IMG/VR virus record: IMGVR_UViG_3300015371_000001 | Location: 64,001-128,000 of that record | Source of the DNA: a virus | Strand: one strand, 5' to 3' | Length of the DNA stretch: 64,000 bases | Shown: positions 27,469-62,831 of the stretch, piece by piece | How the letters are laid out: each line of letters opens with the position of its first letter | Position numbering within the stretch: the first letter of the stretch is position 1 | Notes under the pieces: generated by a model | The model's database searches: none | Seen by the model: the letters and a program-made list of their open reading frames with translations, nothing else | What the model was told of the DNA's origin: nothing | Made by a program: the position numbers and the translations under genes

Positions 27469-27536
27469 TCCCGATTCGATGCACATGGTGTTGTAGATCG
27501 TCTACATCGCCTAGTACGCTGGCTGTTGGAGGCAGC

Positions 27537-27872
27537 ATGAATCTTGTTCTTGACATCCTCGATTGGGTCCTTGCCGTCGTCATCCTGGTCATCTTCGTGT
27601 TCTTCACCGCGTCGGCGCTGTACCCGTGGTGGAACAAGACGAAGCAGGTTCGACTGCTCGGCTGGCCGACTCTGGTGGCATGGCTCGCCTCGTGGGCGAT
27701 TCTGTTCTACTTCGTGGACGTGATCGTGGACGGCTTCAAGGAGTTCGTCGGCTTCATGCTCGGGGTCGTTCTGATCCTCGGGATTGAGCGCATGTACCGG
27801 CGTGCCGATACAGCACATTTGAACTATTTGTTGAAGAACGCACCTAAGCGGGAGCCTGACGACGATGAGTGA
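27537..27872 (+). CDS. membrane protein (3 TM)
   Basis: GGAGGCAGC RBS; hydrophobic segments. Confidence 0.75.
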   Translation: MNLVLDILDWVLAVVILVIFVFFTASALYPWWNKTKQVRLLGWPTLVAWLASWAILFYFVDVIVDGFKEFVGFMLGVVLILGIERMYRRADTAHLNYLLKNAPKREPDDDE

Positions 27873-28182
27873 GTCCTACGTCGAGATCGACCGGATGCGT
27901 CTGGTCGCCGAGCGCCTGCGTACCAAGTGGCGCATGGTGTCTCAGAAGGGGTTGCCGAAGTACCAAGTCAGGAATCGAGCCGCCGACTTCGCGCTGGCTG
28001 ACTGGCTGGACTTCGTGGCCAACACGCACGAGGAGGACCCGACCGACTACTGCCGAGGCGGTGGTCATGCCGATTTTGTGTTGGGCGACCCCGGTCCGGT
28101 TCACCCTTGCACCTCGTGGTGGTGCCAGAACATGGACCAAGCGTTGAAGTTCACCAACGCCTTTTTGATGGAGACGACATGA
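27865..28182 (+). CDS. hypothetical protein
   Basis: Overlapping ORF chain. Confidence 0.6.
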   Translation: MSESYVEIDRMRLVAERLRTKWRMVSQKGLPKYQVRNRAADFALADWLDFVANTHEEDPTDYCRGGGHADFVLGDPGPVHPCTSWWCQNMDQALKFTNAFLMETT

Positions 28183-28311
28183 TTGAGATTGGAATGCACC
28201 TGGCCTGGACCATCTGCATCTCCGTTATCGCGATGGCCTTCGCGATCAGCGAGTTGGGCCACAAGAACTGCGTGCCCAAGGACCATAAGTGTCTCGCTGA
28301 GGACGACAACG

Positions 28312-28749
28312 ATGGCTAGGTTGTCCACCGGGATCTGCTTGGTCGCTGGCACTTGTACTGGCACTGTGTTCGGTCAGTCGTGGTGGCTCTTGACGATCCC
28401 GTACGTCTTGTACTCCGTGTTCGTGATCGTGTGGGCGGAGAGCTTCGTGGAGTTCTATCGGTGGGACGGCGAGGCGTTGCTGCTTTCGTCTGGCTTCGTG
28501 GCGCTCGGCACCTTGTTCCTGGCGTTCGCCATGACGACCGGTCCTGGCTGGCTGTTCGCGATGGTCGTGCTGATGTATGGGTTGACGATGATCAATCAGA
28601 TGTATACTCCACACATCATGCGAGTAGGTTGGCAGAGGCAGCGGCGAGGGCTCGACACCGAGCTTGCTGACAAGCTGCCCTACACTACCGACCTGGGCGC
28701 GATGCGCGACCGGTTCCGGCTCGGTCTGAAGGAGCACGCAGGCCGATGA
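28312..28749 (+). CDS. membrane protein (4 TM)
   Basis: Hydrophobic; start chosen at ATG 28312. Confidence 0.65.
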   Translation: MARLSTGICLVAGTCTGTVFGQSWWLLTIPYVLYSVFVIVWAESFVEFYRWDGEALLLSSGFVALGTLFLAFAMTTGPGWLFAMVVLMYGLTMINQMYTPHIMRVGWQRQRRGLDTELADKLPYTTDLGAMRDRFRLGLKEHAGR

Positions 28750-28994
28750 AGGCATACGTACTGGTTCAGATCGAGGCCGACGACGCCGAGCACACCCGTA
28801 TCCGAGTGGGCTCGATTCGGAAGGCGATCCACGGGATGGCGGAGTCCTTCGGGTACGAGAAGCAGGTCGCCGACATGCCGTTCTACGAGGACGAGGAGCG
28901 TACCTACGTCGGCACGCTCTCGTCGTATCCCGCGCTCGACAAGGAGTTCGAGCGGCACCGGAAGGTATGGCGAGGCGTGAAGGGGCAGCGATGA
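28746..28994 (+). CDS. hypothetical protein
   Basis: ATGA coupling. Confidence 0.65.
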   Translation: MKAYVLVQIEADDAEHTRIRVGSIRKAIHGMAESFGYEKQVADMPFYEDEERTYVGTLSSYPALDKEFERHRKVWRGVKGQR

Positions 28995-29461
28995 AGGATC
29001 GGCTTCAGTCGGCGGTTGACTCCGCCCGCGACCTCGGTGGTTTCTTTCTCTACAACTGGCCCATGTGGATCTTCACGGCAGTGTGGTGCGGCGGTCAGTT
29101 GGTGTTCTTGATGACGACCGTGGTCAACAACATCTTCTTCGACTCGGAGACGTACGCCAAGTACGAGTCCATCGTCTCCTTGACGTGGTTCGTGGTTGGT
29201 GGTGTCTGGCTCTTGATGCGCTCGCTCCTCTGGCCAGATCGGACCAGGCTGCGACAGGAACAGTGGAGGCGTCGGTGGCCGCTCTACATTTGTGGACGGA
29301 CGCAGACCGAGGGCGATGTCACCCACACCTGCGATCTGAAGAAGCACCACCCAGGCTTTCGGCACTCATGCCAGTGCCTCAGGGCTGGACATGCTTCAGG
29401 CCATGCTGGGATCTTCATGTGGGTCTACACCCAGCATGGCGTTCCCGTCGACCTGCTGTGA
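28991..29461 (+). CDS. membrane protein with Cys/His-rich C-terminus
   Basis: 2 TM, then C...HTC.L..HH..RH.C. Confidence 0.65.
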   Translation: MKDRLQSAVDSARDLGGFFLYNWPMWIFTAVWCGGQLVFLMTTVVNNIFFDSETYAKYESIVSLTWFVVGGVWLLMRSLLWPDRTRLRQEQWRRRWPLYICGRTQTEGDVTHTCDLKKHHPGFRHSCQCLRAGHASGHAGIFMWVYTQHGVPVDLL

Positions 29462-29579
29462 AAAACGGCTCGAAGTGAGTATCTAGACGATAGTCGTCCG
29501 GCTCCGGTGCGATAGGGACAGCTAAGGGTTTTGAAGTACCAGAGCATTGTGGAAGTACCTGCTACAAGGAGGCAGAGTA

Positions 29580-29870
29580 GTGAGTGAGGCAGTCGGCGCG
29601 GGAGCGCTGAGCGAGGACGAGGCGCAGCGCGCCCTCCAGAACGCCATCAACACCGAGATCTCGTCGGGGTGGCGTGTGGAATCCCAGATCCCCGGTCAGG
29701 CGACCCTGGCGAAGGGCCGTCACATCAATCACATCGGGCACGGTGTGGCCACCGTGTTGACCTGCGGGTTGTGGGCCCCGGTGTGGGCCATCTCCTGGGC
29801 GGTCAACAGGCGTCAGGTGCAAAGCCTGTCGGTCGACCAGTACGGCAACGTCCAGCGGCAGAAGCTCTGA
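29580..29870 (+). CDS. small membrane-associated protein
   Basis: GGAGGCAG RBS; GW.VES...NH..H...T.LT.GLW..VW motif seen in actinobacterial proteins. Confidence 0.75.
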   Translation: MSEAVGAGALSEDEAQRALQNAINTEISSGWRVESQIPGQATLAKGRHINHIGHGVATVLTCGLWAPVWAISWAVNRRQVQSLSVDQYGNVQRQKL

Positions 29871-29877
29871 GGTCATC

Positions 29878-30114
29878 GTGGAGACCGTGTTCTGGAGCGC
29901 CGTGTTCGCCGTAGCGGTGTGCGCGCCGAGCGCGTTGCTGTGTTGGGCGATGAGCCGGAGGATCAAGGCGGACTACCGCGAGGCACGGGCCAAGGCGAAG
30001 GCCGAGCACCAGGCGCGGATGGCCGCGATCCTGGCAGAGTTCGACCGAGAGCTTGAGCGACAAGGACTTCTGAGCGAGGTCAAGAACACCGAACAAGAGA
30101 GGCAGCAACCGTGA
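29878..30114 (+). CDS. TM + coiled-coil protein
   Basis: N-terminal TM segment. Confidence 0.6.
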   Translation: METVFWSAVFAVAVCAPSALLCWAMSRRIKADYREARAKAKAEHQARMAAILAEFDRELERQGLLSEVKNTEQERQQP

Positions 30115-30653
30115 GCGTAGAGAAGCGAGCAGCGCGCGTCCTGGCCGAGGCCGAGGAGCTATTGGACCAGGGCTGGATTCAGGGCACCGAGTGGGACGCC
30201 AATGGGAACCACTGCATGAGGGGCGCGATCAACGAGGTGATCGACAACCAGGTCACCCTCCGGGTCCGTCCGGGACTGCGGAAGAAGGTGCTTCACGCAG
30301 CGGTGGGAGCCACCAACACCGTGGTCACCAAGCAGTCGAGTTATCTCGGCGACGACACCCTGGTCTCCAAGCTGTGCTACGGGATGGAGTCGTACAACGA
30401 CACTTCCGGACGCACCAAGGAGCAGTGCCAGGGCGCGTTCAGGGCGGCGCGGCGCGGGTTGCTGGACGGACGGTTCGTGTTCGACCGGCACGCGCTACGC
30501 GCGATCACCGTGCAGGAGCCGAAGAAGGCCAAGGCACCTGCGCTGCCACCGGCTCCTCCGGAGCCCAGCTACAAGGGTGTGCCCAGCTTCGCGCCGTCGG
30601 CCAAGAAGCCGGTGAGCGAGAAGAAGGCACGCCGGGAGAAGGTCCACGCATGA
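30111..30653 (+). CDS. DUF6197-like protein, paralog 1
   Basis: A..L...GW.QG...HC..GA...YND..GRT..Q. Confidence 0.75.
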   Translation: MSVEKRAARVLAEAEELLDQGWIQGTEWDANGNHCMRGAINEVIDNQVTLRVRPGLRKKVLHAAVGATNTVVTKQSSYLGDDTLVSKLCYGMESYNDTSGRTKEQCQGAFRAARRGLLDGRFVFDRHALRAITVQEPKKAKAPALPPAPPEPSYKGVPSFAPSAKKPVSEKKARREKVHA

Positions 30654-31105
30654 GCCCCGAGCCGGAGCAGGTCGCCGAGGTCCTGGAGGACGCCGCCGAC
30701 CTGATCGAGTCCGGGTGGTGCCAGGGGACCTGGACGCGCAAGGCGGTGACCTGGAACGGGCAGGATGCCGGGGAGGAGGTCTGCGCGTCGGAGGCGATCT
30801 CGCGGATGGTCTGGAACAACACCAGCACCAAAGCCGAGCAGGTCGAGTTGTCGACTGCTGCGCACCGAGCGGTGCTCGAACACCTGGGCCCTGAGGAGTT
30901 GAAGCACCTGACCGAGCGGCTGGAGGTCGACCGGCAGCATGGTGATGGCTTCTTGACACCACACATCGTGCTTTCGCGGACTCGCGACCCTGTCATCGCC
31001 TGGAACGACCGTCCGTCCATCGACGGCGGGCCGAATAAGCAGGAGGTCCTGGACACCTTCCGAGGTGCGGCCAAGGACGTACTGAAGCCTGAGGAGGCAG
31101 CATGA
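30650..31105 (+). CDS. DUF6197-like protein, paralog 2
   Basis: AADLIE.GWCQG...VC..EA...WND...EVL..FR.AA. Confidence 0.75.
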   Translation: MSPEPEQVAEVLEDAADLIESGWCQGTWTRKAVTWNGQDAGEEVCASEAISRMVWNNTSTKAEQVELSTAAHRAVLEHLGPEELKHLTERLEVDRQHGDGFLTPHIVLSRTRDPVIAWNDRPSIDGGPNKQEVLDTFRGAAKDVLKPEEAA

Positions 31106-31647
31106 GTGAGGCGCGACTGAGCGCAATCGACCAGGTCATCGTGGACGCGATCCGGGGCGGGGCCGAGATCATCGAGCGGGACGGCTGGACCAAGGGCGAC
31201 CTGCACGCACCGACCGGTGAGCACTGCGCGTTGGGCGCGCTCGACGCCTGGCTGACCGAGCACACCCGTCACGGGACGGCGCTTGAGTACCTGAGGCTTC
31301 GTGAGCAGGTGCAGCAGGTGGTGAACCTGCATGTGCAGGACACGACGCGGTACTCCAACGTGGCGAGGTTCAACGACGCCACCCGGACCACCTACGCCGG
31401 TCAGGTGACTCGCAAGCTGCGGGAGGCGGCTGCCTGGTACGAGCGGACCCGGCTCGCTCAGGTCATGGGTTCGCTGACTGAGGTCGAGGCTGCGCTGAAG
31501 GCGGAGGCCAAGGCTGAGAAGAAGGCAGCAAAGGCCGAGCGCCGTGAGCAGCGCAAGATCAAGCGCAAGGCGCGGCGTTGGGGCCGGTCGCCGGTCACCT
31601 GGCCAGCCGAGGAGCAGGTCACCGACAAGGCCGAGGAGCGGGTGTGA
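31102..31647 (+). CDS. DUF6197-like protein, paralog 3
   Basis: GWTKG...HCALGAL...FND...V...LR.AA. Confidence 0.75.
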   Translation: MSEARLSAIDQVIVDAIRGGAEIIERDGWTKGDLHAPTGEHCALGALDAWLTEHTRHGTALEYLRLREQVQQVVNLHVQDTTRYSNVARFNDATRTTYAGQVTRKLREAAAWYERTRLAQVMGSLTEVEAALKAEAKAEKKAAKAERREQRKIKRKARRWGRSPVTWPAEEQVTDKAEERV

Positions 31648-32108
31648 GCACGACGATGGCGATTTCGGCGCTGGACATCCTGCCGGTCTATGACTCGGAG
31701 ACTTCGGAGGTCATCGGCGGGTTCGACCGGACGGTTCAGCGGGACGACTCCGAGCGGACCGCCGAGATCTGTGAGAACGCGGCCAAGCTCATCGAGGAGC
31801 GAGGTTGGACCCAGGACACCGCCGTCGGCGCGAACGGCGGTGTCTGTCTGGTCGAGGCGCTGACCCGCGCCGCGCTGGACAAGGTGATCTTCACCAGTGG
31901 CGGGGCCGACGAGTCGGTTCGGGCGGCGTTCCAGAGGGCGCTGGACCACATGGAGTGGACGCTGTTCGGCTCCAAGACGCTGGACGAGGGCTACAACATG
32001 GCGCGCTGGAACGACCGGATAGGGCGTCGGGAGCAAGAGGTCCTGGACGCGCTCCACACCGGAGCCAAGCTCGCACTCAACCCGGAGGCAGACCGTGGCG
32101 ATGCATGA
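31644..32108 (+). CDS. DUF6197-like protein, paralog 4
   Basis: GWTQ...VCLVEAL...WND..GR...EVLDAL. Confidence 0.75.
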   Translation: MSTTMAISALDILPVYDSETSEVIGGFDRTVQRDDSERTAEICENAAKLIEERGWTQDTAVGANGGVCLVEALTRAALDKVIFTSGGADESVRAAFQRALDHMEWTLFGSKTLDEGYNMARWNDRIGRREQEVLDALHTGAKLALNPEADRGDA

Positions 32109-32580
32109 TCATTCGGTCCTTTGTCCTCTGTGCAGTCCGACGATTGATCTGACCGAGCAGGAGGAGGCCAACCACATCGCGTCCGGGGTGAACCCGTCCA
32201 CCGGTACTCCGGCTGACCCTGGCATCAACACGCCGGAGCGTCGTCACGAGGACGAGCAGTTGGCTGACATCCTGGACCGGGCTGCCGATCTATTGGAGAC
32301 GCACGGTCGTTGCACCGAGCAGTTGGTCGACAAGGCGACCGGCGAGTTGTGTCTGGTCGGTGCGCTGATGAAGGCGAGCGACGAGCACGAGGTGGTCGGC
32401 AAGCGTCGTCGCCGGGTCTACCGGCACATGCTCGACACCACCTGGCTGGAGATGGATTTGCCTCGACTGTGGTTGTCGTCGTGGAACGACTCTAAATGGA
32501 CCACCGACCAACAAATCCTCGACGCCCTGCGTCTGGGAGCCAAGAACGCAAGAATGCCAAAACCGATGGAGGCAGAATGA
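32095..32580 (+). CDS. DUF6197-like protein, paralog 5
   Basis: AADLLETHG...LCLVGAL...WND..TT..QILDALR. Confidence 0.75.
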   Translation: MAMHDHSVLCPLCSPTIDLTEQEEANHIASGVNPSTGTPADPGINTPERRHEDEQLADILDRAADLLETHGRCTEQLVDKATGELCLVGALMKASDEHEVVGKRRRRVYRHMLDTTWLEMDLPRLWLSSWNDSKWTTDQQILDALRLGAKNARMPKPMEAE

Positions 32581-33128
32581 ATACCACAATCGGGACGTTG
32601 ACCGAGTCCCCCACCGTGCAGTTGTCGATCACCAAGAAGCTGATCGATGAGGCCGTCGTGGGAGACTCCTCCCACTGCATGGTCGCCAACGCGGTCAAGC
32701 AGGCCATCCCCCACGCGCGGCACGTCAGCGCCGACATTCAGTCGATTCGCTTCAGCGATCCGAGCAAGGGTGTCCGCTACATCTACCTGACGCCGCGCAA
32801 GGCGCAGGAGGCGATCCTGTCCTTCGACCGGGGCAACAAGCCCAAGCCGTTCCGGACTACGATTCGGAATGCCCATGTGACCGAGATGGGCAAGAAGAAG
32901 TCGCCGAAGAAGATGGTCAGGCGGACGAAGGACGGCCCGCGCAGCACGCCGATGGTCGTCGGTGGCAAGCCTGCGCCGATGGGAGCGCTGTCCGGTACGG
33001 CACGGACCAAGGCCACCAAGAAGGCGGCGGCGCGCAAGGTCGGCAAGCTCAACCAGCGTCGGGCAGGCGAGGCCACGGGCCGGATCGGTCGTCGCCGTGA
33101 GTTCGGCCTTCGGGCGATGGTCAAGTAG
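32577..33128 (+). CDS. basic hypothetical protein
   Basis: GGAGGCAG RBS; DSSHCMVA.A motif; Lys/Arg-rich tail. Confidence 0.7.
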   Translation: MNTTIGTLTESPTVQLSITKKLIDEAVVGDSSHCMVANAVKQAIPHARHVSADIQSIRFSDPSKGVRYIYLTPRKAQEAILSFDRGNKPKPFRTTIRNAHVTEMGKKKSPKKMVRRTKDGPRSTPMVVGGKPAPMGALSGTARTKATKKAAARKVGKLNQRRAGEATGRIGRRREFGLRAMVK

Positions 33129-33202
33129 CGCTTGGAGGTGAACCGAGTGCTGAGATTGGACGAGTGGGTCTACCCTGCGTGGTGGGACCCCAAGGAGGCA
33201 GC

Positions 33203-33724
33203 ATGAATCCCTTCGGCCAAGAGCCGGAAGATGCCGAGCTAGGCAAGAACACTACGGTCATGGATCGGTCCGGTGGGCATTCGGGTGTGGTGGCCAAATA
33301 CTACGTGGCTCCGCCGCAAGTCGGCTCGGACGAGTACGACGTGCTGGACGCTGCGTGGCTAGACCACTTTCCCGGTCGGTCGAAGAAGCCGATCATCTCC
33401 GACTTGGTTGCCGACGTGATGGAGGCGTGCGCGGACTACATGACCGAGGTCGGTCACACCAAGTACACGCTCATCGACAACGACGGCTCGGTGTGTTTGA
33501 CCGGCGCGGTTGACGGTGTCACGAACGGTTGGCCGTCGTGGCAGCGGACGCTGTTCATGGATCACATGGAGGCCGTGGTTCGGCCTCCACAGAGGCCGAT
33601 GGCGCTGATCATGTGGAACGACTATCCCGAGACGACGCAGGAGCAGGTGGTCGAGGGCTTCCGGAAGGCTGCCAAGGTCGCTCGTGGAGCACCATTGGAG
33701 GATGCCTCCGATGGATCTCAATGA
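33203..33724 (+). CDS. DUF6197-like protein, paralog 6
   Basis: GSVCLTGA...WND.PETT.EQV...FRKAAK; GGAGGCAGC RBS. Confidence 0.75.
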   Translation: MNPFGQEPEDAELGKNTTVMDRSGGHSGVVAKYYVAPPQVGSDEYDVLDAAWLDHFPGRSKKPIISDLVADVMEACADYMTEVGHTKYTLIDNDGSVCLTGAVDGVTNGWPSWQRTLFMDHMEAVVRPPQRPMALIMWNDYPETTQEQVVEGFRKAAKVARGAPLEDASDGSQ

Positions 33725-34082: not shown

Positions 34083-34260
34083 GATCCAGGGACTTACGCA
34101 GGCGCAGGTCGCCAAGCGGATGGGCGTGCCGCAGTCACAGATCTCGGTCCTGGAGAACGAGCACCACGTACTTCGGCTCGACACCCTTCAGCGTTACGCC
34201 AGAGCCATCGGGGCCACGCTTCACTTCACCTACACCGTGGACGAGGCCAAGGTCGAGTAG
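33991..34260 (+). CDS. XRE-family HTH protein
   Basis: LRK..GLTQAQVAKRMGV.QS.IS.LEN...L.TLQRYA.AIG. Confidence 0.85.
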   Translation: MSRTRARIINPRQADLAQAREFVRSLVALRKIQGLTQAQVAKRMGVPQSQISVLENEHHVLRLDTLQRYARAIGATLHFTYTVDEAKVE

Positions 34261-34289
34261 GCTGGAGCCCTATCTATTTGGAGGCAGCA

Positions 34290-34781
34290 ATGTGTGAATA
34301 CTGTGGTGACCCGACGGTGGCGGCTGATCTTCCGACGCCAGACATCCCCAAGCTCCGCAAGCTCTATGAGTGGGCGTGCGAGCAGGATGCGTTGCGGAAG
34401 AAGTCGTTTCGTGCAGGCGACTACGACTTGACCGAATGGGCTCAGGGGCAGTGGGCGCAGAAGATCGTGGGTGTAGAAGGCGTCTGCGGTACGGCGTACT
34501 GCATAGCCGGGAAGGCGGCGGCGGAGGCTGGCGCGACCTGGACCGAGCAGCAGTTGAGCGGTGAGCACGGTGGGTCGACCTGCACGCTGCCGAATGGCAG
34601 GGTCATGACCGTACGCATTTTTGCGCAGCAGGACTTGGGTCTGTCGCATAGCGAGGCCAGCCGGTTGTTCCACGGCACGAACGACATCGGCACGATCCAC
34701 CATGTCCTGAGGGACATCTGGGAGCGGGCTGGGGAGAAGTTCGACCTGACGCTTCCAGAGCATTTGACTGATTCGGACTGA
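34290..34781 (+). CDS. hypothetical phage protein (W.QG.W...CGTAYCIAG)
   Basis: GGAGGCAGC RBS; motif seen in actinophage accessory proteins. Confidence 0.7.
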   Translation: MCEYCGDPTVAADLPTPDIPKLRKLYEWACEQDALRKKSFRAGDYDLTEWAQGQWAQKIVGVEGVCGTAYCIAGKAAAEAGATWTEQQLSGEHGGSTCTLPNGRVMTVRIFAQQDLGLSHSEASRLFHGTNDIGTIHHVLRDIWERAGEKFDLTLPEHLTDSD

Positions 34782-35723: not shown

Positions 35724-35772
35724 AACCGAGTACCAGGGTTCGAGAGGGTATCTATTCACAGGAGGCGCACCA

Positions 35773-37016: not shown

Positions 37017-37591
37017 GTGAGGATCTGTGGCGCAAGCTGCTCGTACAGGAGGGCATCGTGCAGGCTCCGATGGAAGCCGATGTGTTGTGGAAGATGTGGG
37101 TCGACCGGTACTTGAAGCCGTGGCAGCCGTCGGCTCGCGAACGTGAACGGCACGCCGCTCAGGCTGAGCGAACCCGGCAACGACTCCGGCAGGACTTGGC
37201 TGAGCAGCGTGGTCACGAGCGCAATGAGCGTGCGGCGTGGGAGGAGTTGGACTCGCATCTCACCAAGGATGAGGTCGCTCAGCGAAAGAAGGACGGTTAC
37301 GTCGACTTCATGGGCTCGAACGGTCGGCGGTACCGGGTCTATATGAGTGACGAGTTCGGGATCACCGACAACGTCTGGGAGATCGACCAGCATGGGTGCG
37401 AGATCCGGAACTACTGTGGAGCGCCGGAGATGTACGCCAACGACATGAGGTTCGCGCGTACGAAAGCCATTCCTGAGCCGTTGGGATACTTGGGACAGGT
37501 TTTGACGTTGAGGTTCAATGCCGAGGCATTTTTGGCAGCGGCGTACGCAGGCGAAGTATGGCAATGTGAGAGGCAGCAAGGCAGTGGCTAA
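37013..37591 (+). CDS. conserved-Cys domain protein (possible E2-like partner B), paralog of the previous gene
   Basis: Same motif: GSNGRRYRV...NVWEIDQHGCEIRNYCGAPEMY...GYLGQVL. Confidence 0.7.
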   Translation: MSEDLWRKLLVQEGIVQAPMEADVLWKMWVDRYLKPWQPSARERERHAAQAERTRQRLRQDLAEQRGHERNERAAWEELDSHLTKDEVAQRKKDGYVDFMGSNGRRYRVYMSDEFGITDNVWEIDQHGCEIRNYCGAPEMYANDMRFARTKAIPEPLGYLGQVLTLRFNAEAFLAAAYAGEVWQCERQQGSG

Positions 37592-38851: not shown

Positions 38852-39002
38852 CGATCCGTACATCGACCTCGGGTGGTGGGCGATGTCGGGTCGAAACCTC
38901 ATGGAGGCGCTTCAGCGGGCTCATAATGGCGAGGACCCTGACCTGATCTACGCCGAGCTATACGCCAACTCGCGGACGGAGATCCCTCCAGTCGCGGAGT
39001 AG
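38841..39002 (+). CDS. small hypothetical protein
   Basis: 53-aa ORF filling the gap (MDLDDPYIDLGWW...GEDPDLIYAELYANS). Confidence 0.55.
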   Translation: MDLDDPYIDLGWWAMSGRNLMEALQRAHNGEDPDLIYAELYANSRTEIPPVAE

Positions 39003-39026
39003 GCTCGCAGTAGGAGGCAGTCCCCG

Positions 39027-40202: not shown

Positions 40203-40216
40203 CCGATAATCTTGTC

Positions 40217-40423
40217 GTGGAGATCGACCCGGCTCACGAGAGTACGTGGGGAGCAACCCCGGAGTACAAAGCGGCGTGGGAAGCCAAGCATGGTGAGAGC
40301 GCCCTACGTCCGGCTGAGAGCGCTCCCAAGGCCGAGTGGGTCGATTGGGCTGTCGCGCATACTGACCTTGACCGGAAGCAGGCCGAGGGTCTGACGACGA
40401 AGGCACTGAAGGAACTGGAATGA
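40217..40423 (+). CDS. small protein with P..SA.KAEWV.WA helical module, probably leaderless late gene
   Basis: GTG lies 7 nt after CCGATAA (40203-40209). Confidence 0.6.
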   Translation: MEIDPAHESTWGATPEYKAAWEAKHGESALRPAESAPKAEWVDWAVAHTDLDRKQAEGLTTKALKELE

Positions 40424-41009: not shown

Positions 41010-41037
41010 ATCCTCGAACAGCTAGGTATTAGAGAGT

Positions 41038-42510
41038 GTGGCTACGGCAATCGAGCATGGGCAGAAGGTCCTGGCCTCGATTGTCCCGAATGGTCGCGAT
41101 GAGCTTGACCTAGCGCTGCGGTACCTGCTGCCCGAGCACTTCCAGGACCCGACCCAGCGCAATCTGTTCCTGATGCTGGAGCGGTACGCCGACATCACGG
41201 GCGCGGTCATGACCCGTGACGCCTTCGATGATTTGATCTCGAAGGCTACGGCGGACGCAGGCAAGGCCGCGCTCTATCTGGAGACCTACGACCTGCTGGT
41301 TGCGATGCCGTCCTCTCCGGCTGAGTTCCGCTGGAGCATGAACGAGCTACGGGACCTGGCTGCTCAGCGAGAGACTGGCCGGGTCATCACCGAGGCTATG
41401 GGCATCCTCCAGACCGGGCTCGATGGGGAGCACGGGAAGCGTCTCAAAGGCCATGAGGATGCCCGTACGCATGTGCTGGCGGAGTTCGCCGAGATCGACC
41501 GCTCCCTGGCCATGCAAGAGGCCCCAGAGGGCGCTATCCGGCATCAGCAGGAGGAGATCCTTCAGGACTATGCCGACCGGAAGCGAGCCACCTCAGAGGG
41601 CCGGAACGTCGGCGTCGACTTCGGCTTGCGTGCGCTTGACTACAAGATCGGTGGGCTCCAGCCTGGCGACTTCGCCCTGATCGCCGGGTACTCCAGCGAC
41701 GGCAAGACATCTCTGGTGGTCCAGCTTGCTTGGGCAGCGGCGGTCCAGCAGGGCAAGAACGTGGTCATCGCCACCACGGAGACCACGCAGCCTCAGGTCC
41801 GGCGCAAGCTGGTCGCTCGGCACTCCACCCTGGAGCAATTCGGTCTGACCGACGGCCTCAACTCCAGGGCGCTGCGGGACGGCACGTTGGACGCCGATGA
41901 GGAGCGGGTCCTTCCGGAGGTGGTCACCGACCTCACCCGGAATCCGGCGTACGGGGAGGTCTACATCAAGCAGATCCCGAGGGGGCAGACCCTCGCGCAG
42001 TTGGAGTCGGCGCTGTATCGGATTCACCGGAGCTTCCCCATCGACGTGTGCGTGATGGACTACTTGGCTCTGCTGAAGGCCGAGCGCCGGAGGGAATCCA
42101 TCCGGGACGAGCTTGGCACGCTGATGAAGGAGTCCAAGCAGATCGCTACTACGTTCGATGATGGCCGTGGTCTCATCTTCGTGAGCCCCTGGCAGGTCAA
42201 CCGGACGGCGTACGACAACGCGCTGCGGCTGGGCTACTACACCACGCTGGCGCTGTCAGAGACGGCAGAGGCGACCAACTCCCCCGACATCATCGTCAGC
42301 GTACTCAACCAGATTGCCGATAGCGATGCACGGTTCGCCGAATTGAAGCTCCAGCTACTCAAGAACCGGGACGGCGAGACGGCGTCGAGTTTGATGATGG
42401 CCGTCGACTACGCCACCTGTAACTTTTCCGAGAAGGTGTCGAACACCGGCATTGAGGGCGTCCTGGACGGCACGGAGGACCAAGAGTTCGGCGGTCTCCT
42501 CGGCATGTGA
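41038..42510 (+). CDS. dnaB: DnaB-like replicative helicase
   Basis: LD..IGGLQPG, AGYSSDGKT, MDYL.LL, QVNR, KNRDG. Confidence 0.9.
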   Translation: MATAIEHGQKVLASIVPNGRDELDLALRYLLPEHFQDPTQRNLFLMLERYADITGAVMTRDAFDDLISKATADAGKAALYLETYDLLVAMPSSPAEFRWSMNELRDLAAQRETGRVITEAMGILQTGLDGEHGKRLKGHEDARTHVLAEFAEIDRSLAMQEAPEGAIRHQQEEILQDYADRKRATSEGRNVGVDFGLRALDYKIGGLQPGDFALIAGYSSDGKTSLVVQLAWAAAVQQGKNVVIATTETTQPQVRRKLVARHSTLEQFGLTDGLNSRALRDGTLDADEERVLPEVVTDLTRNPAYGEVYIKQIPRGQTLAQLESALYRIHRSFPIDVCVMDYLALLKAERRRESIRDELGTLMKESKQIATTFDDGRGLIFVSPWQVNRTAYDNALRLGYYTTLALSETAEATNSPDIIVSVLNQIADSDARFAELKLQLLKNRDGETASSLMMAVDYATCNFSEKVSNTGIEGVLDGTEDQEFGGLLGM

Positions 42511-49959: not shown

Positions 49960-50000
49960 CATCTCATAGACCTATTTGGCGAGCTTGGAGGCAGCCACCT

Positions 50001-50210
50001 ATGAGCATCATGGACACATTCCCTCAGTCGGCAGACGGACCGGATGAGGACGCCGTCCACAAGGCACGAGAACTGATCGCGAAGCACCTGTCAGCGGCGG
50101 TGATGGAGGCCATGCGTCTCCCGTACCCCGACAAGCCGGAGCAGGTGGCTGAGGAGATCACGACGGTCGTGCAGACGTTGGTCGTTTCGTGGAAGGGAGT
50201 GATCGTCTGA
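50001..50210 (+). CDS. hypothetical protein; best predicted target of the candidate sRNA
   Basis: RBS region 49978-49998 is complementary to 62048-62067. Confidence 0.7.
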   Translation: MSIMDTFPQSADGPDEDAVHKARELIAKHLSAAVMEAMRLPYPDKPEQVAEEITTVVQTLVVSWKGVIV

Positions 50211-51549: not shown

Positions 51550-51830
51550 TACGATTGACTCACATGGTCAATTTGGAAAGGAACCACAGAGCCGTGGTTT
51601 ACCAGGAGGCAGTCACCACGTTGGAGCGGCTTGCTCGCTCCGGAGATCACGTCATGGTGCGCATCGAGGCGGAGGGCGTCGGGTCACTCGACCTGTTCGA
51701 TTCTCCGGTCGATGCCCATGACGGGCTGATCGGACTCAAGTCCGCTCACGATGCGCTCGACGCGCATGGCGGACACCTCACGCACGTCAGTGTCCGGAGG
51801 GACGAGACGGGCTTGGGGATCACTCACTAG
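51546..51830 (+). CDS. hypothetical protein (alternative start TTG 51621 behind a GGAGGCAG site)
   Basis: ORF chain. Confidence 0.5.
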   Translation: MIRLTHMVNLERNHRAVVYQEAVTTLERLARSGDHVMVRIEAEGVGSLDLFDSPVDAHDGLIGLKSAHDALDAHGGHLTHVSVRRDETGLGITH

Positions 51831-52123: not shown

Positions 52124-52727
52124 CACTACTCTGCAAGTTCCTACGCACTCAGAGATTGAGAAGGTCCTGGGTGACTTCGACCGGTGGTCTCATAATTGTC
52201 ACTCGGCGTCGCTCCACCTCGTGCAGTCCGGCATCTTCGGACCCGAGGCAAGAGTCGCCCGAGGTTCCGCAATCGGCGTCATCGGCCAGCATTCTTGGCT
52301 GGTCGTTGGAGATCCGTACGACGAGGACGCGCCCATCGTGGACGTGACTCTCTGGAGCTACGACGACAACCAGCCGAAGATCTGGCGCGGCACCCTGCGG
52401 GATGGTGTTCACCGTCCCCAAGGCTCCGGGTCGATCTGGTTGATCGGTGGCCCACCACCGGACCCGGAGGGCGAGATCATCGAGCTACAGCCACCTGAGG
52501 ACGGTTGGTCCTTCGGTGCGATTTCCTGGCTCGACATGATTGGTCCTCTGGACCTGCGTGGCTGGCATCACTTGTTCAACGGTCCCGTGGAGGGTTGGCC
52601 CGCACGGGAGATCATCACTCAGGCCGCGTCTGACAAGCGGCTCAAGGCGCTCATCCCCATTGACATCTTGGGGATGGTCACCGATCTTGACCCTTCGGGG
52701 TTGTACCTAGGAGGCAGCACAGAATGA
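52116..52727 (+). CDS. hypothetical protein with C..H..D residues (possible transglutaminase-like fold)
   Basis: NCH.AS...QHSW....IVD.T order of putative catalytic residues. Confidence 0.5.
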   Translation: MADTTLQVPTHSEIEKVLGDFDRWSHNCHSASLHLVQSGIFGPEARVARGSAIGVIGQHSWLVVGDPYDEDAPIVDVTLWSYDDNQPKIWRGTLRDGVHRPQGSGSIWLIGGPPPDPEGEIIELQPPEDGWSFGAISWLDMIGPLDLRGWHHLFNGPVEGWPAREIITQAASDKRLKALIPIDILGMVTDLDPSGLYLGGSTE

Positions 52728-53909: not shown

Positions 53910-54383
53910 ATGAGCGCTCCGATTGAGGAGCCCGTGCTTCCCGTGTGGGAGGCCACCAAGCGAATCGAGGGCTGGAACCCGCACGAGATCTGGACGGCTT
54001 CGGTTGGTCCAGCACCAACGGCGGAGGATGTCCAGCGCGAGGACGAGAACCGCACGCACGAGATCCTGCTGTCGTCATCGCCGAATGTGCCGACGGCTCC
54101 GATGCCGACGATCATCTACGAGGGGCCGGTGATCAAGGACGAGGAGGTCGACACCAAGGTCATTGAGGGCCAGGTGATTGATGTCATCGAGACGCACGAC
54201 ACGGTCGTTCCGCCCAATCCACCGATGACTGACGAGGAGCTAGACCAGGCGGTGATCGACGCGGTCGAGCTAGGCAGCTTCAAGAGCGCCAACGCGCTTC
54301 ACAGTCATCTGCGGAAGTCCAACGCCATCTCCTACGACCGAGTCAACAAGGCGTGGAAGGCAGCGCATGACGGATCGGCGTAG
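53910..54383 (+). CDS. hypothetical protein
   Basis: RBS GGAG; possible C-terminal HTH. Confidence 0.6.
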   Translation: MSAPIEEPVLPVWEATKRIEGWNPHEIWTASVGPAPTAEDVQREDENRTHEILLSSSPNVPTAPMPTIIYEGPVIKDEEVDTKVIEGQVIDVIETHDTVVPPNPPMTDEELDQAVIDAVELGSFKSANALHSHLRKSNAISYDRVNKAWKAAHDGSA

Positions 54384-54852: not shown

Positions 54853-55106
54853 GAGCTATCCCGCTCGTCCTGCTGGCCATGTTGTTCATCGCTGCGGCAA
54901 TCTTCGTGGTCGCTCGGGTCATCCCGAGCAAGCGTCGCGAGGAGACCCGACAGTTGCGGGCGCAAGCTCACGCTCATGTCGCCACGTTGATGGCGATTGA
55001 GACGCACGCCAAGCAGGCTATCGACGCTGACCCGAGCGATGTGCTGGCTCAGCAGATCCAGTACGAACTACAAGGGCTCAAGAGAGAGCTTGGAGGCAGT
55101 GAATGA
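54849..55106 (+). CDS. TM + helical protein
   Basis: N-terminal TM; precedes the SPFH gene. Confidence 0.65.
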   Translation: MRAIPLVLLAMLFIAAAIFVVARVIPSKRREETRQLRAQAHAHVATLMAIETHAKQAIDADPSDVLAQQIQYELQGLKRELGGSE

Positions 55107-56104: not shown

Positions 56105-56183
56105 GAGAATCGAGTTGTCGGTCATCTACACCTTGGCCTGATAGGCTTCAAGGTGTAGATTGATCGGCAAGGAGGCAGTACAC

Positions 56184-58003: not shown

Positions 58004-58086
58004 GCGTTGTTGAAGGTCGGCAACTGCTAATCTATGCTGTCTAGTAACACATGGTCTCTTTGGAGACTGAACTGGAGGCAGCACCC

Positions 58087-58566
58087 ATGCCAGCAACCAC
58101 CAAGGCAATCAACACCAACCGGTACCGGATTCGTCGTGGCGACAGCGAGACGCTGAAGGCGATCCTCGCTGAGGCCGAGCACCGGCACCGTGATCTCAAG
58201 CGGCACGCTCCTGACGCCTACGCCCACCGTGTGTGGGAGGACGTGATCAAGGAGGCCGACGAGAAGAAGATCGCGGACCAGATCCCCGGCACCGTCGGCT
58301 ACACGTTCAAGGTCAAGTACGGGCGTCAGGGCAAGCCTGGTCGTCCCCCGGCTCACCGTGAGGTCCGGCTGGGCTCGAAGCAGGTCGAGTTGGTCGACAA
58401 CATGGATCTCCCTGAGCACGCCACCCTGGACAGGGTCGGCAAGAAGCTCGTGTTCCGTGCTCGTACTCCGGTCGTTCGCGCCGTCCGTTCGGCGGCTCGT
58501 TCTGCGCCGGACAGCAAGTCCCGAGAGTCGCTGGACCGGCTCCTGAAGTCCGTGCTCGAAACCTGA
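58087..58566 (+). CDS. basic hypothetical protein
   Basis: GGAGGCAGC RBS; flanked by terminators. Confidence 0.7.
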   Translation: MPATTKAINTNRYRIRRGDSETLKAILAEAEHRHRDLKRHAPDAYAHRVWEDVIKEADEKKIADQIPGTVGYTFKVKYGRQGKPGRPPAHREVRLGSKQVELVDNMDLPEHATLDRVGKKLVFRARTPVVRAVRSAARSAPDSKSRESLDRLLKSVLET

Positions 58567-59485: not shown

Positions 59486-60098
59486 GCTCCGGAAGCCGAG
59501 TCCGGTCACCCTCGCCAACGAGAAGGTGCCCATCGTCGCGCTCTGCCGGTACCTGGGGATGGACCTGCCGGACTACACCTCCGGCAACATCAAGACGTAC
59601 TGCCCGTTCGGCGACGTGGAGCACTCCGATCAGGGGATGGAGGCTGCGTTCCGCGTCTACCCCGAGCCGAACAACGCCTACTGCTTCGCCTGTGGTCTGT
59701 TCTTCTCGCCGGTCAGCCTTGCGGCCAAGGCGTGGGACATGACGCGGCGAGAAGCTGCGGTCAATCTCTTGGATTGGATCGGGTTTAAACCGCTATCTCT
59801 GGCAGAGGAGTGGGAGAATGTCGTCAACCCGGTGCCGGTCATCGACAAGGAGTCGTTGGGGCTCGCACTCAGGGTGTATGTCGAGAGGATCAGCCCAGGG
59901 TGGGCTGCGCAAGAGGTGGAGGACGGCTATCCCCAGCGTCAACTGACCAGGTGTTTGGCGCTGCTCGATAGAGTCACGACAGAGGCGGAGGCGCAAGTAT
60001 GGCTGGCTCGCTGTCGTGAGGTCATGTCTGACGCGATAGGAGTAGCGACGGATGCCACGCAAGATCAAGCCGGTGCCAGGGTGGATCACCCTAGCTGA
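59472..60098 (+). CDS. CHC2 zinc-finger primase N-terminal domain protein (no TOPRIM)
   Basis: CPF...H.D...AF.VY....AYCFAC. Confidence 0.75.
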   Translation: MPSTRLRKPSPVTLANEKVPIVALCRYLGMDLPDYTSGNIKTYCPFGDVEHSDQGMEAAFRVYPEPNNAYCFACGLFFSPVSLAAKAWDMTRREAAVNLLDWIGFKPLSLAEEWENVVNPVPVIDKESLGLALRVYVERISPGWAAQEVEDGYPQRQLTRCLALLDRVTTEAEAQVWLARCREVMSDAIGVATDATQDQAGARVDHPS

Positions 60099-60402: not shown

Positions 60403-60430
60403 GCCCCAGGCGAGTAGGAGCCTGGGGCTT
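60403..60430 (+). terminator. stem-loop
   Basis: GCCCCAGGC / GCCTGGGGC followed by TT. Confidence 0.55.
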
Positions 60431-60493
60431 CACGATGTAGACGGTCGGCAACTAGGCGACAGGTACACTAGAGCGGTATGAAGGAGGCAGCAT

Positions 60494-60766
60494 ATGGCTG
60501 AGACAGTCCAGGGGTTTAAGTTCCCTAGTCGGTATCCGTGGGACCAGTGGGCCAACGGTGAGCAGTGGAAGTTGAAGCAGGGCGAGGACTTCCATGTGGG
60601 TACCAAGTCGTTCCGAGGAGCGGCCTGGCAGCACGCTCGGAGTAACAACCTTGGTCTCAGCACGTCCGTTGTTCGCGAGGACGGGGCGACCTACATGGTG
60701 GTTCAGTTCTCCAAGTCTGAGTCGGACCGGATTAGTCCGGGGTGGTCATCGACCCCCGAAGGTTGA
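60494..60766 (+). CDS. hypothetical protein (YPWD.W.NG..W.L..G.DF; possibly DNA-binding)
   Basis: AAGGAGGCAGC RBS. Confidence 0.75.
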   Translation: MAETVQGFKFPSRYPWDQWANGEQWKLKQGEDFHVGTKSFRGAAWQHARSNNLGLSTSVVREDGATYMVVQFSKSESDRISPGWSSTPEG

Positions 60767-60789
60767 CATCTGTCTACCTGAGCTATTAT
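60763..60789 (+). promoter_or_regulatory. sigma-70-type promoter candidate
   Basis: TTGACA at 60763 and TATTAT at 60784 (15-nt spacer, shorter than ideal). Confidence 0.4.
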
Positions 60790-60809
60790 GGGCTCAGGAG
60801 GCAGTAATC

Positions 60810-61382
60810 ATGACTAATCACACACAAAACCGAGGGCGCGTTGCGCTCCTCAAGCTCCTCAGGATTCCGCTGTGGGTGGCGGTCGCCGCTTTGATGACTC
60901 CGACCTTGTCGAGCGCCGATGAGTCGTTGTCGGCACGGCAGGTGACTTCGGTCCCGCAGGCGACGCCTGATTTCAAGTCCAGCAATACGGTCGTGTTCGA
61001 TTTGGCTCCGTCGGTCGACGGTGCCTGGAAGGTCGGCGCGGCGGTTCACTCGATGGAGAACAAGGCACCGGCTCTGCCGAACCTGATCATCGGGAACTGT
61101 GGGGCTCACCCGAGCGCCGGATGCGTCAAGGTGAATCAGATCAATAAGGCCAAGCCGTGGTGGTACCGCTGGGACACCCAGGAGGCCATCGACTACGGCA
61201 AGATCACCCTCAACGCGCGACACGGGAAGTCCAAGCGCGCCTCGTGTGACGCCACGGCTCAGGTCATCGCTATCGTGGCCCACCACAGGCGAGGCAAGGG
61301 CTGTACTCGGGTCAACGCTCCGGCGTCAGCCAAGGAGTTGGGTGGGGCGGCAGCCTTGGCGATTCAGAACGCCTACAACTAG
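60810..61382 (+). CDS. secreted protein
   Basis: Signal peptide; GGAGGCAG RBS; paired Cys residues. Confidence 0.7.
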   Translation: MTNHTQNRGRVALLKLLRIPLWVAVAALMTPTLSSADESLSARQVTSVPQATPDFKSSNTVVFDLAPSVDGAWKVGAAVHSMENKAPALPNLIIGNCGAHPSAGCVKVNQINKAKPWWYRWDTQEAIDYGKITLNARHGKSKRASCDATAQVIAIVAHHRRGKGCTRVNAPASAKELGGAAALAIQNAYN

Positions 61383-61403
61383 GGGAAGTCTCCGCAAAAG
61401 CCG

Positions 61404-61625
61404 ATGATCTACCTAGGGGTAGCTGTGGCTATTCCGGCTCTCCTCGCCCTTTGGTATCACCTACTACTCGTTTTGGAGAGAAGGGACCGGACGTGGTTCA
61501 GAAAACAGCCACGGCACCGACAACGACGGCGCTCGCGCCGACGGCTGATCAGACCGGCGTTCTCTGGCCTGGTGGTCGGCCTGATGCTGGCGTGGGTGGC
61601 GGCTGGAATCTGGGCTTCAGGATGA
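61404..61625 (+). CDS. small 2-TM protein
   Basis: Two hydrophobic segments around an Arg-rich loop. Confidence 0.55.
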   Translation: MIYLGVAVAIPALLALWYHLLLVLERRDRTWFRKQPRHRQRRRSRRRLIRPAFSGLVVGLMLAWVAAGIWASG

Positions 61626-61765
61626 CGGACCAGGCTCACTCGGAGGGTAGTCACCAGCCGAGGGAGTCGTCGGTCCGTTGTCTGCGTTGTCTGGTGCGGA
61701 ACACCTACAACGTGCATGGGATCTGTGACCGTTGTGGACCGGAGACTTGCGACTTCTGCCGGTAG
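61622..61765 (+). CDS. small Zn-finger protein
   Basis: CLRC, CDRC, CDFC. Confidence 0.5.
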   Translation: MTDQAHSEGSHQPRESSVRCLRCLVRNTYNVHGICDRCGPETCDFCR

Positions 61766-61808
61766 ATATTCTTGGCCTCATCGTCTAAGATTGCGGTGGA
61801 GGCAGCAG

Positions 61809-62015
61809 ATGATCACACACGCACCGCGCAACCCGGATGTCACTCAGTGCGGTCAGGAATTGACCAAGGTGGCGACCGCGTACAACCCAACGTGCTTCAG
61901 GTGTAAGCACAAGGAGCAGCGGCGTCTGAGGGAGTGGCGAGAGGCCAACGACCCCACGGAGGGCCGTGACGAACGACCCACACCTTCGACGCACTGGCCC
62001 AGGCAGGATGCATGA
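61809..62015 (+). CDS. small Zn-finger protein
   Basis: H...CG...TC..C; GGAGGCAGC RBS. Confidence 0.6.
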   Translation: MITHAPRNPDVTQCGQELTKVATAYNPTCFRCKHKEQRRLREWREANDPTEGRDERPTPSTHWPRQDA

Positions 62016-62029
62016 CGTACGCTGGGTAC

Positions 62030-62155
62030 GTAGCTCAGTCGTGCAGTGTGGCTGCCTCCAACTCGCCTAGCGGCGAGCCAGTTATCACACGGCGTTCTGA
62101 GCGCCAGTGGCCCCGCGCCCGGTTTCTCCGGAGAGCGCGGGGCCGCTCTTTTTTT
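62030..62155 (+). ncRNA. candidate small RNA antisense to the GGAGGCAG(C/T) RBS motif
   Basis: Intergenic; carries GTGGCTGCCTCCAACTCGCC, a nested stem structure and a GC stem + T7 terminator. Confidence 0.6.
62106..62155 (+). terminator. intrinsic terminator
   Basis: AGTGGCCCCGCGC / GCGCGGGGCCGCT stem followed by TTTTTTT. Confidence 0.85.
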
Positions 62156-62196
62156 GAACTGCTAGAGAAATATGTCTCCGGTGAGTAGAAGGTGGT

Positions 62197-62481
62197 GTGC
62201 CTGGTCGCTGCGCTGGTTGTGGGGAGACGGACTCCTCGTGCAAGCGAGTGAAGCAGCACGTCATGAACTGCGCGTCGTACCTGGATCTGTTCCGGTCTCA
62301 TCCGGAGCGAGCGCTGGAGCCGAAGGCGGAGTATGACCGGTGGCGTCGAGAGGACATGTCGCCGGAGGCGAAGGATCAGCGGAAGGCCAAGCGGCTGGCT
62401 GGCACCTTCGCCCGTCTCGACCGAGAGCGGGACAAGCAGGCTAGGCGGTGGGAGACCCCGCCCGATCCTCTGGAGGACTGA
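62197..62481 (+). CDS. Zn-finger-like protein
   Basis: CAGC...H...C. Confidence 0.65.
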   Translation: MPGRCAGCGETDSSCKRVKQHVMNCASYLDLFRSHPERALEPKAEYDRWRREDMSPEAKDQRKAKRLAGTFARLDRERDKQARRWETPPDPLED

Positions 62482-62738
62482 TGTCGCGTAGTGCGTCGAT
62501 GAAGCAGAGTCGACAAGACAAGCTGGACCGGATCTTCAAGGGCCGTCGGTGGCGGCTGGAGCGTGAGGTCCATCTGCCGGAGGGTCAGGTCTTTCAGACT
62601 CCCCTCGGAACGAAGGGCCGACACGGGTATCTGATCTTCGATCCGGACGACCCTGGCACGAAGTACGTGGTTGGCGCTAGGCTCATGCGCCTGGTCCACG
62701 ATGAGTACGACCAGGACCTTCCAATCCCGAACAGCTAG
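62481..62738 (+). CDS. hypothetical protein
   Basis: TGATG coupling; RBS GGAGG. Confidence 0.65.
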   Translation: MSRSASMKQSRQDKLDRIFKGRRWRLEREVHLPEGQVFQTPLGTKGRHGYLIFDPDDPGTKYVVGARLMRLVHDEYDQDLPIPNS

Positions 62739-62831
62739 GGTTATCGTACGGACATCCGTCCGGGGGCGACGGTGTTGATCTTCGGCAACCTGATTCAGTA
62801 GGGTCTGGTCCTGTTCAGGAGGCAGCCAGTT

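Follow-up and report, generated by a model that had tools for sequence, protein, structure and literature searches.

A start-associated extension of the Shine-Dalgarno core on non-structural genes of an uncultured rhizosphere phage

The phage and the tag

The stretch of DNA analysed here (the window) comprises 64,000 nucleotides (nt), bases 64,001-128,000 of IMG/VR record IMGVR_UViG_3300015371_000001, a single 141,276-bp contig; its GC content is 61.5%. The source is, judging by its sequence, an uncultured siphovirus-like phage, nearly all of whose genes lie on the plus strand. The tail genes occupy positions 1-19,000 of the window and the tape measure protein is 2,618 amino acids (aa) long. 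The genome also encodes a helicase, a sigma factor, DnaB, 36 transfer RNAs (tRNAs) and many small genes without assigned function. Our subject is the word GGAGGCAG, here called the tag, in which the Shine-Dalgarno (SD) core GGAGG runs on into CAG and which stands just before the start codons of many non-structural genes. A sequence-only reading of the window had taken it for a regulon-wide translational control tag, a proposal that is plausible but unproven.

Association of the tag with start codons

GGAGGCAG occurs 21 times on the plus strand of the window and once on the minus strand, 22 matches in all, against 3.9 +/- 2.0 (maximum 9) in 100 shuffles. The whole genome holds 35 plus-strand and two minus-strand copies. 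In 27 of the 35 plus-strand copies a start codon lies 4-11 nt after GGAGG, with a gap of 1-8 nt between the end of the tag and the start. Independently of any gene calls, a start codon opening a reading frame (ORF) of at least 50 aa follows 27/35 copies of GGAGGCAG and 83/392 other GGAGGNNN sites (odds ratio 12.6, p = 3e-11), confirming the enrichment at starts that the sequence-only reading had implied. We also called 179 genes with a codon model, picking starts on the SD core only. The most enriched hexamer in the 20 nt upstream of these 179 starts is GAGGCA (30 occurrences versus 1.5 expected, p = 7e-30), and AGGAGG ranks behind it in this unbiased count. CAG follows 22 of the 66 start-associated GGAGG words, a count that excludes four tagged starts recovered later, and no other triplet follows more than four. 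The base after GGAGGCAG is C in 15 and T in eight of the 27 start-associated copies, and A is frequent at the position beyond, giving the form W-GGAGG-CAG-Y-A.

The spacer between GGAGG and the start codon is broad (4-11 nt) and bimodal, with peaks at 4 and at 8-9 nt, while the position of CAG relative to GGAGG is constant. As CAG is locked to GGAGG despite the variable distance to the start, the word is an extension of the SD sequence and not a start-codon context. About five degenerate copies (AGAGGCAGC twice, GAAGGCAGC twice and GGGGCAGC once) retain GGCAGC as the SD core weakens. In five cases the tag falls within the 3' end of the preceding coding sequence, which ties the tag to starts and not to promoters as such. 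Predicted accessibility does not set tagged sites apart from other GGAGG sites (0.43 versus 0.38, p = 0.09).

A polar site in the DNA itself, serving a DNA-binding protein, recombination or restriction avoidance, would account for the strong strand bias of 35 copies to two, and a ParB-like gene is among those tagged. We regard such a signal as highly improbable, since the copies follow start codons to within a few nucleotides, even inside overlapping gene ends. Moreover, with all genes on one strand, the bias follows from the association with starts alone.

Sites in the window

All 17 sites listed by the sequence-only reading, and an eighteenth at 51605 that it had called possible, are exact GGAGGCAG words on the plus strand. 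A start codon lies 1-6 nt beyond each named tag and opens an ORF of 68-353 aa; the site at 51605 differs, having a gap of 8 nt and a TTG start. The variants named there are likewise present, namely AGAGGCAGC at 30098 and 37569, GGGGCAGC at 28982 and GGAGGCGC at 35761.

The first tag, GGAGGCAG(C) at 27528-27535, precedes an ATG at 27537 (111 aa, no family) and has a -10-like TACGCT at 27514-27519. The weak variant GGGGCAGC at 28982-28989 is followed by an ATG at 28991 (156 aa), and GGAGGCAG(A) at 29568-29575 by a GTG at 29580 (96 aa, phrog_34413, unknown function). Next comes a group of paralogs of DUF6197/phrog_762. Their sites are the variant AGAGGCAG(C) at 30098-30105 (GTG 30111, 180 aa) and tags at 31093-31100 (ATG 31102, 181 aa), 32084-32091 (GGAGGCAG(A), GTG 32095, 161 aa, overlapping the upstream gene end) and 33194-33201 (ATG 33203, 173 aa). 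Among them, GGAGGCAG(A) at 32568-32575 lies inside an upstream gene end, with a 4-nt overlap, before an ATG at 32577 (183 aa). The tag at 34280-34287 serves an ATG at 34290 (163 aa, phrog_889) and has a -10-like TAGGCT at 34258-34263. The same hexamer at 39000-39005 stands 7 nt upstream of GGAGGCAG(T) at 39013-39020 (ATG 39027, 74 aa). Between these two, AGAGGCAG(C) recurs at 37569-37576 before a 47-aa ORF (GTG 37584) that is an uncertain gene.

Further downstream, the leader at 49978-49998 of the gene at 50001-50210 (69 aa) contains a tag at 49987-49994. The doubtful gene of the 51605 site, GGAGGCAG(T) at 51605-51612, begins with the TTG at 51621 (69 aa). Two tags lie inside upstream gene ends: that at 52710-52717 (ATG 52724, 193 aa) and GGAGGCAG(T) at 55092-55099 (ATG 55103, 333 aa, Band_7/SPFH). 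To the sites named earlier we add the variant GAAGGCAG(C), in the form GAAGGCAGC, at 54356-54363 (ATG 54367, 161 aa). GGAGGCAG(T) at 56171-56178 precedes a 353-aa gene (ATG 56184) with a weak ParB-like match and a -10-like TAGATT at 56156-56161. Another GGAGGCAG(T) at 60797-60804 follows a -10-like TATTAT at 60784-60789 and leads to an ATG at 60810 (190 aa). The tag at 61798-61805, in the form GGAGGCAGCAG, follows a -10-like TAAGAT at 61786-61791 and leads to an ATG at 61809 (68 aa). Three plus-strand copies in the window, at 24648, 52087 and 57687, have no start, and the single minus-strand copy lies at 62052.

Tagged genes and their promoters

The sequence-only reading had confined the tag to non-structural genes, and the counts agree. 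By our own gene calls and crude module borders, the tag stands before 26/130 non-structural and 0/49 structural genes (p = 2e-4). Among GGAGG-type sites the figures are 26/57 non-structural and 0/12 structural (p = 0.002). No head, tail or lysis gene, nor any gene of the module named for its 1583-aa protein, is tagged. The closest approach to a tagged structural gene is the tape measure gene (window 3087-10943), which lies behind CTGGAGCAGTAGATG, that is, GGAG-CAGT, tag-like minus one G.

Searches against PHROGs and Pfam leave most tagged genes as orphans. Assigned families are DUF6197/phrog_762, Band_7/SPFH, a weak ParB-like match and DUF7873. Shared ancestry is evident for just five tagged genes, all of them DUF6197/phrog_762 paralogs, and the rest, about 20, are unrelated. 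With more than 20 unrelated families tagged, the word must have been fixed many times independently. By hidden Markov model or BLAST, DUF6197/phrog_762 has six members in the genome, at 30111, 31102, 32095 and 33203 of the window and at genome positions 47912 and 57718, with a possible seventh at window 31644. The four window members form an array at 30111-33724, most of it tagged.

It is conceivable that the word is a relic of descent, spread with duplicated genes or copied promoter-leader cassettes and functioning through its SD core alone. The five tagged paralogs, four family members of which sit in one array, would fit such a history, as would the promoter with a CGGCAAC spacer that several tagged genes share. 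Nevertheless, we consider this explanation improbable, given the lack of kinship among the other 20 or so tagged genes, flanks of the word that are not alignable, and the five copies within the coding end of an upstream gene. Nine nucleotides are also too short for homologous exchange.

Tagged genes differ from others in their starts and in what lies upstream. ATG is the start codon in 23/26 of them, compared with about 65% of other genes, and the median upstream gap is 76 nt, compared with 10-37 nt. When only gaps of 25 nt or more are considered, a TAGNNT -10 box is found before 8/20 tagged and 3/80 other genes (p = 7e-5), and a full -35/-10 pair before 5/20 and 1/80, respectively. The end of the -10 box lies 6-18 nt from GGAGG, so many tagged mRNAs would have their SD sequence almost at the 5' end. 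The tag thus sits mainly on promoter-proximal genes with short leaders, and what it marks is a type of transcription-unit leader no less than a functional group of genes. A reading of the word as itself part of a promoter, with a -10 box and a leaderless start, was rejected on account of the 4-11 nt start distance and the many sites with a separate upstream -10 box.

Five leaders, four with the exact tag and one with the near-variant GGAGGCAT, lie behind promoters of the form TTGAC-N3-CGGCAAC-N9-11-TAnnnT. In the window, the word (T)CGGCAAC comes right after the -35 box of sigma-70-type promoters at 58010-58038, 60438-60469 and 62774-62804. The first of these (58010-58081 with its tag) comprises TTGAAG at 58010-58015, CGGCAAC at 58018-58024, TATGCT at 58033-58038 and a tag at 58074-58081, before an ATG at 58087 (159 aa). 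The second (60438-60490) comprises TAGACG at 60438-60443, CGGCAAC at 60446-60452, TACACT at 60464-60469 and a tag at 60483-60490, before an ATG at 60494 (90 aa). The third (62774-62825) comprises TTGATC at 62774-62779, CGGCAAC at 62783-62789, TAGGGT at 62799-62804 and a tag at 62818-62825, before a GTG at 62832 (234 aa). The same promoter family recurs at genome positions 572, 5816, 46602, 47892 and 48413, and several of its members drive tagged genes or non-coding RNAs. The CGGCAAC word may serve as an operator or extend the promoter.

Two kinds of apparently leaderless start occur among genes without the tag. The first is CCGATAA (or CCGATGA or CCGCTAA)-N7-GTG without an SD sequence, found at window 953-969 and 40203-40219 and at genome positions 34363, 43328 and 52842. 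Boxes of this type precede the terminase, protease/scaffold and endolysin-region genes and two small genes, which suggests that a compact promoter drives late genes without leaders. In the second, the helicase and DnaB genes begin 9 nt past a conserved TAGGTAT box. A near-identical element of about 23 nt, ACAGCTAGGTATTAGAGAGTGTG, lies at GTG starts at window 22072-22094 and 41023-41045 (the DnaB gene, with a variant form at the helicase), and a third copy is present at genome position 135677, where no ORF was called. Its sequence suggests a promoter of the middle class, with translation of a leaderless mRNA beginning 9 nt beyond TAGGTAT.

Pairing with 16S rRNA and occurrence in relatives

Bases following GGAGG might simply prolong the pairing with the 3' tail of 16S ribosomal RNA (rRNA), for which UGAUC would be required. 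Of the 256 possible extensions, CAGC comes 234th in pairing with the free tail, and only 28th even if the 3' strand of helix 45 (GCUG) is opened. We therefore rejected tail pairing as the cause of CAGY, in line with the sequence-only reading, which had held the CAG(C/T) extension to be unexplained by it.

The nearest named relative of the phage is Microbacterium phage Magritte (DnaB identity 48%), and the closest DnaB homologues reach 69% identity. A DnaB profile run against genome contigs found one phage contig, CAZIWB010000017.1 (126 kb, DnaB identity 54%). It is binned in a metagenome-assembled genome (MAG) labelled 'uncultured Cellvibrionaceae', most likely as a misbinned phage contig of the same group, and the label gives no clue to the host. 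By the same count throughout, CAG follows 27/110 start-associated GGAGG words in our phage, 4/160 in 27 related loci (26 IMG/VR records and one MAG contig) and 2/56 in Magritte. Whole records of relatives, nine of them at least 90% complete, hold 0-9 copies of GGAGGCAG, compared with 35 here. The tag is therefore not a feature of Magritte or of the 26 related IMG/VR records, all of them distant. As a positive control, the same method recovers the start-associated sequence (SAS) of cluster K mycobacteriophages in phage Anaya. Crude 7-mer and 8-mer screens of 26 DnaB loci for private tags in the relatives gave only codon-driven words. Since the relatives lack the preference, it is not a property of this phage group or, by proxy, of its hosts.

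These results bear on the main rival to a tag read in trans, namely a cassette that acts in cis only. Here GGAGGCAGY(A), in the form GGAGGCAGC, would be the best combination of SD core and spacer on the host ribosome for early mRNAs with short leaders, perhaps limiting over-strong SD pairing or local structure, and no trans-acting reader would exist. This is the simplest reading, as the SD core within the tag is perfect and its distance from the start is compatible with initiation. It suits promoter-proximal genes whose SD sequence lies almost at the mRNA 5' end, where initiation may need a special context, and few extensions add less pairing with the 16S tail than CAGC does. However, the capsid and tail genes, expected to be the most highly expressed, are never tagged, and the 27 related loci and Magritte, whose hosts are probably similar, have no such preference. 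The broad spacer with its two peaks is unlike an optimised geometry, tagged sites do not differ from other GGAGG sites in predicted accessibility, and the degenerate copies keep GGCAGC but lose the SD core. A favoured ribosome site in cis is consequently possible, though we think it unlikely on balance.

A different link to 16S rRNA arises from the body of the molecule, because GGAGGCAGCA(G) is identical to positions 347-356/357. The tag might bind or compete for the binders of that segment, and an antisense copy could pair with the rRNA itself. The segment is contained in primer 341F (CCTACGGGAGGCAGCAG), and the match covers the preferred A at position 10, which is otherwise unaccounted for. 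As a rough figure, before correction for the many partners tried, the probability of a 10-nt match within an RNA of 1.5 kb is about 0.002-0.003. Against this, the idea was formed after the fact, the bases GGAG 347-350 are engaged in helix 14 in the ribosome, and no factor is known to connect the 347-357 segment with initiation. Where the rRNA has G just ahead of the matching word, the phage has A or T, and the antisense element described below fits a phage leader (20 bp) far better than the rRNA (9 nt). We therefore think a functional 16S look-alike very improbable and the match to the 341F site probably a coincidence. The antisense copy of the tag, GCTGCCTCC, is also the first nine bases of the EUB338 probe.

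An antisense copy in the 3' untranslated region of a tagged gene

The sole plus-strand GCTGCCTCC of the genome lies at 62051-62059 of the window; in RNA, the antisense copy of the tag reads GCUGCCUCC. It falls within a 95-nt structured part of the non-coding stretch at 62016-62152, bounded by the stop codon of the tagged gene at 61809-62015 (68 aa) and by a strong intrinsic terminator (62110-62142 plus a T run). The predicted fold has an energy of -75.2 kcal/mol (z = -5.3). Within it, CCUCCAA is unpaired with a probability of 0.7-1.0 in a predicted internal loop, and the GCUG part lies in a stem. The seed in GCUGCCUCC is complementary to 27 leaders, its CCUCCAA part being predicted to be accessible. 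The Y at tag position 9 suits pairing with G, as G-C or G-U.

One leader pairs with the element at much greater length. The element at 62045-62066 and the leader at 49978-49998 of gene 50001 share 20 bp of complementarity with one bulge, 12 paired nucleotides more than the common 8-mer (P = 4e-4 by simulation over all 35 sites). The 3' arm of the element reads like the leader of gene 50001 minus TTGGAGG. In a predicted fold of the transcript at 61795-62150, the tagged 5' end pairs with the element in both the minimum free energy and the centroid structures. The element could, as modelled, be an antisense partner in cis or in trans, or could regulate gene 50001 alone; in view of its 3' arm, it might also be what is left of an inverted copy of the gene 50001 leader.

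The site is the 3' untranslated region (UTR) of a tagged gene; a search for a promoter of the element's own gave none that was convincing, and a strong terminator is present. The 26 related records hold no homologue of 61790-62160, a search of IMG/VR with the exact small RNA (sRNA) word returned one unrelated chance match, and Rfam has no match in the window. An origin of 62016-62110 from a tRNA found no support, the best alignment, to the phage tRNA-Gly(UCC), scoring 34, within the shuffle null (mean 28.5, maximum 42).

A second putative non-coding RNA lies outside the window at genome positions 7552-8035, where about 480 nt without an ORF sit in the tRNA cluster behind a TTGACC-N17-TAGAGT promoter and have a very stable predicted fold. 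It has no match in Rfam and shares the 10-mer TGCCTCCAAC with the antisense element. Its anti-SD-like word, UGCCUCCAAC, is predicted to be paired and was hence dropped as a candidate.

A proposed reading of the tag in trans

What has to be accounted for is a motif anchored on the SD core, restricted to one class of genes, linked to promoters and specific to one lineage. We infer that the tag acts in RNA and is read in trans, and propose, with moderate confidence and as the most probable reading, that GGAGGCAGY(A) is an mRNA tag by which a class of early genes is co-regulated. The tag consists of the SD core GGAGG fused to an extension of 4-5 nt unable to pair with the 16S 3' tail. About 27 early or non-structural genes, 18 of them in the window, have it in their mRNA leaders, and most of these genes come first after a sigma-70-type promoter and have a very short leader. 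One trans-acting factor would read the tag in the mRNA, so that the tagged class is translated or silenced together, and late genes would escape through their leaderless or plain SD sites. If the factor is the antisense element, pairing of GCUGCCUCC with the leader would block access to the ribosome-binding site. Between an RNA and a protein reader our judgement is split roughly evenly, the antisense element being the sole concrete candidate.

In its most specific version, the proposal makes the tagged class a set of targets of the RNA at 62016-62152, which would switch these early genes off together by pairing with their GGAGGCAGY leaders and would bind the leader of gene 50001 most tightly. 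SAS in general, including those of cluster K1 phages, would likewise be targets of phage antisense RNAs. We put this forward tentatively and think it rather unlikely. If it is true, an RNA-guided switch would supply a mechanism for the SAS, a puzzle since 2011.

Several results weigh against a reader in trans or against the antisense element as that reader. With 0.17 copies of GCTGCCTCC expected in about 24 kb of non-coding sequence, a single copy is unremarkable. Leaders other than that of gene 50001 pair with the element through the shared 8-9 nt only, which is at chance level, and the preferred A at tag position 10 mismatches it. The cluster K3 phage Pixie has 18 SAS and no reverse copy, so an antisense copy is not required for systems of this type. 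For a protein reader, the genome has no match to the RegA (PF01818) or RegB (PF10715) models; these are also blank in all 14 control genomes, so their blanks here say little. Nor does the phage genome encode a bS21 homologue. The public sequencing runs holding the phage are rhizosphere DNA metagenomes with identical sequence at low depth, and none of the listed runs is an RNA run. One wastewater run has diverged phage fragments that leave the sRNA region uncovered. No close relative was found with the 353-aa protein in IMG/VR, with the 234-aa protein in JGI metagenomes or by megablast against phage records. The gene calls, start choices and module borders are our own and crude.

Should the reader exist, the tag could be put to direct use as an orthogonal element for controlling expression in actinobacterial systems. 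In any case, the phage appears to use at least three modes of initiation, namely tagged SD, plain SD and leaderless.

Comparison with known systems

In phage T4, the translational repressor RegA and the endoribonuclease RegB are phage factors that act on the ribosome-binding regions of many early mRNAs, and RegB cuts within the GGAG of early SD sites, shutting early genes off as a class. The recognition words of both differ from the tag. Regulon sRNAs pair with ribosome-binding regions through a short seed, and include sRNAs derived from 3' UTRs and RNAs with C-rich loops, such as 6C, in Gram-positives and actinobacteria. The antisense element resembles these in being a predicted structured RNA with an intrinsic terminator, a C-rich anti-SD loop and an 8-9-nt seed matching many leaders. 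It differs in lacking an Rfam match and in having extended pairing with one leader only.

The closest likeness is to the SAS of cluster K mycobacteriophages, a comparison that the sequence-only reading had drawn, aptly, while noting that the sequence is different. The cluster K SAS was described in 2011, with the suggestion that some as yet unnamed factor of the host or the phage recognises it (PMC3203893); its role was still unexplained in 2024 (PMC11373665) and 2025 (PMC12699233). Both elements are short asymmetric words made of an SD core and conserved bases unable to pair with 16S rRNA. Both sit a few nucleotides upstream of starts, before 11-19 genes in cluster K and about 27 here. Cluster K SAS lie 3-9 nt upstream in one orientation, and 27/35 copies of the tag end 1-8 nt upstream. 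Each is confined to the non-structural part of its genome, prefers ATG starts and larger upstream gaps, and is associated with promoters. Neither is found in other phages, and the cluster K SAS is also absent from the host.

The two also share a stray reverse copy. K1 phages have one, unlinked to a gene start, as noted by Pope et al. (PMC3203893). In Anaya the reverse SAS, GGCCTCCTATCCC, lies at record positions 59870-59882 on the transcribed strand, where gp96 and gp97 are separated by 385 bp of non-coding sequence. The surrounding region is predicted to fold well (z = -4.1) and to leave the reverse copy unpaired.

The words themselves differ. The cluster K SAS is the 13-nt GGGATAGGAGCCC, whereas the tag is GGAGGCAGYA, of 9-10 nt, extended on its 3' side only. 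Allowing up to two mismatches, GGGATAGGAGCCC occurs three times on each strand of our genome and is not enriched at starts. In cluster K, extended SAS form 17-bp imperfect inverted repeats around a promoter; we saw none here, although no systematic search was made. The promoter partner of the tag is an ordinary -35/-10 pair, in some cases with the CGGCAAC spacer word. The phage itself, with its 141-kb genome from an uncultured rhizosphere source, is unrelated to cluster K. Given the different sequence and the lack of enrichment of the cluster K consensus, the tag is not a member of the cluster K family; its sequence features make it a start-associated sequence of the same kind, private to this phage. 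It is thus a second independent case of SAS, with a different word, in an unrelated large soil phage and with the same set of properties. SAS therefore look less like a quirk of one cluster than like a general phage strategy, that of giving one class of genes its own translation signal.

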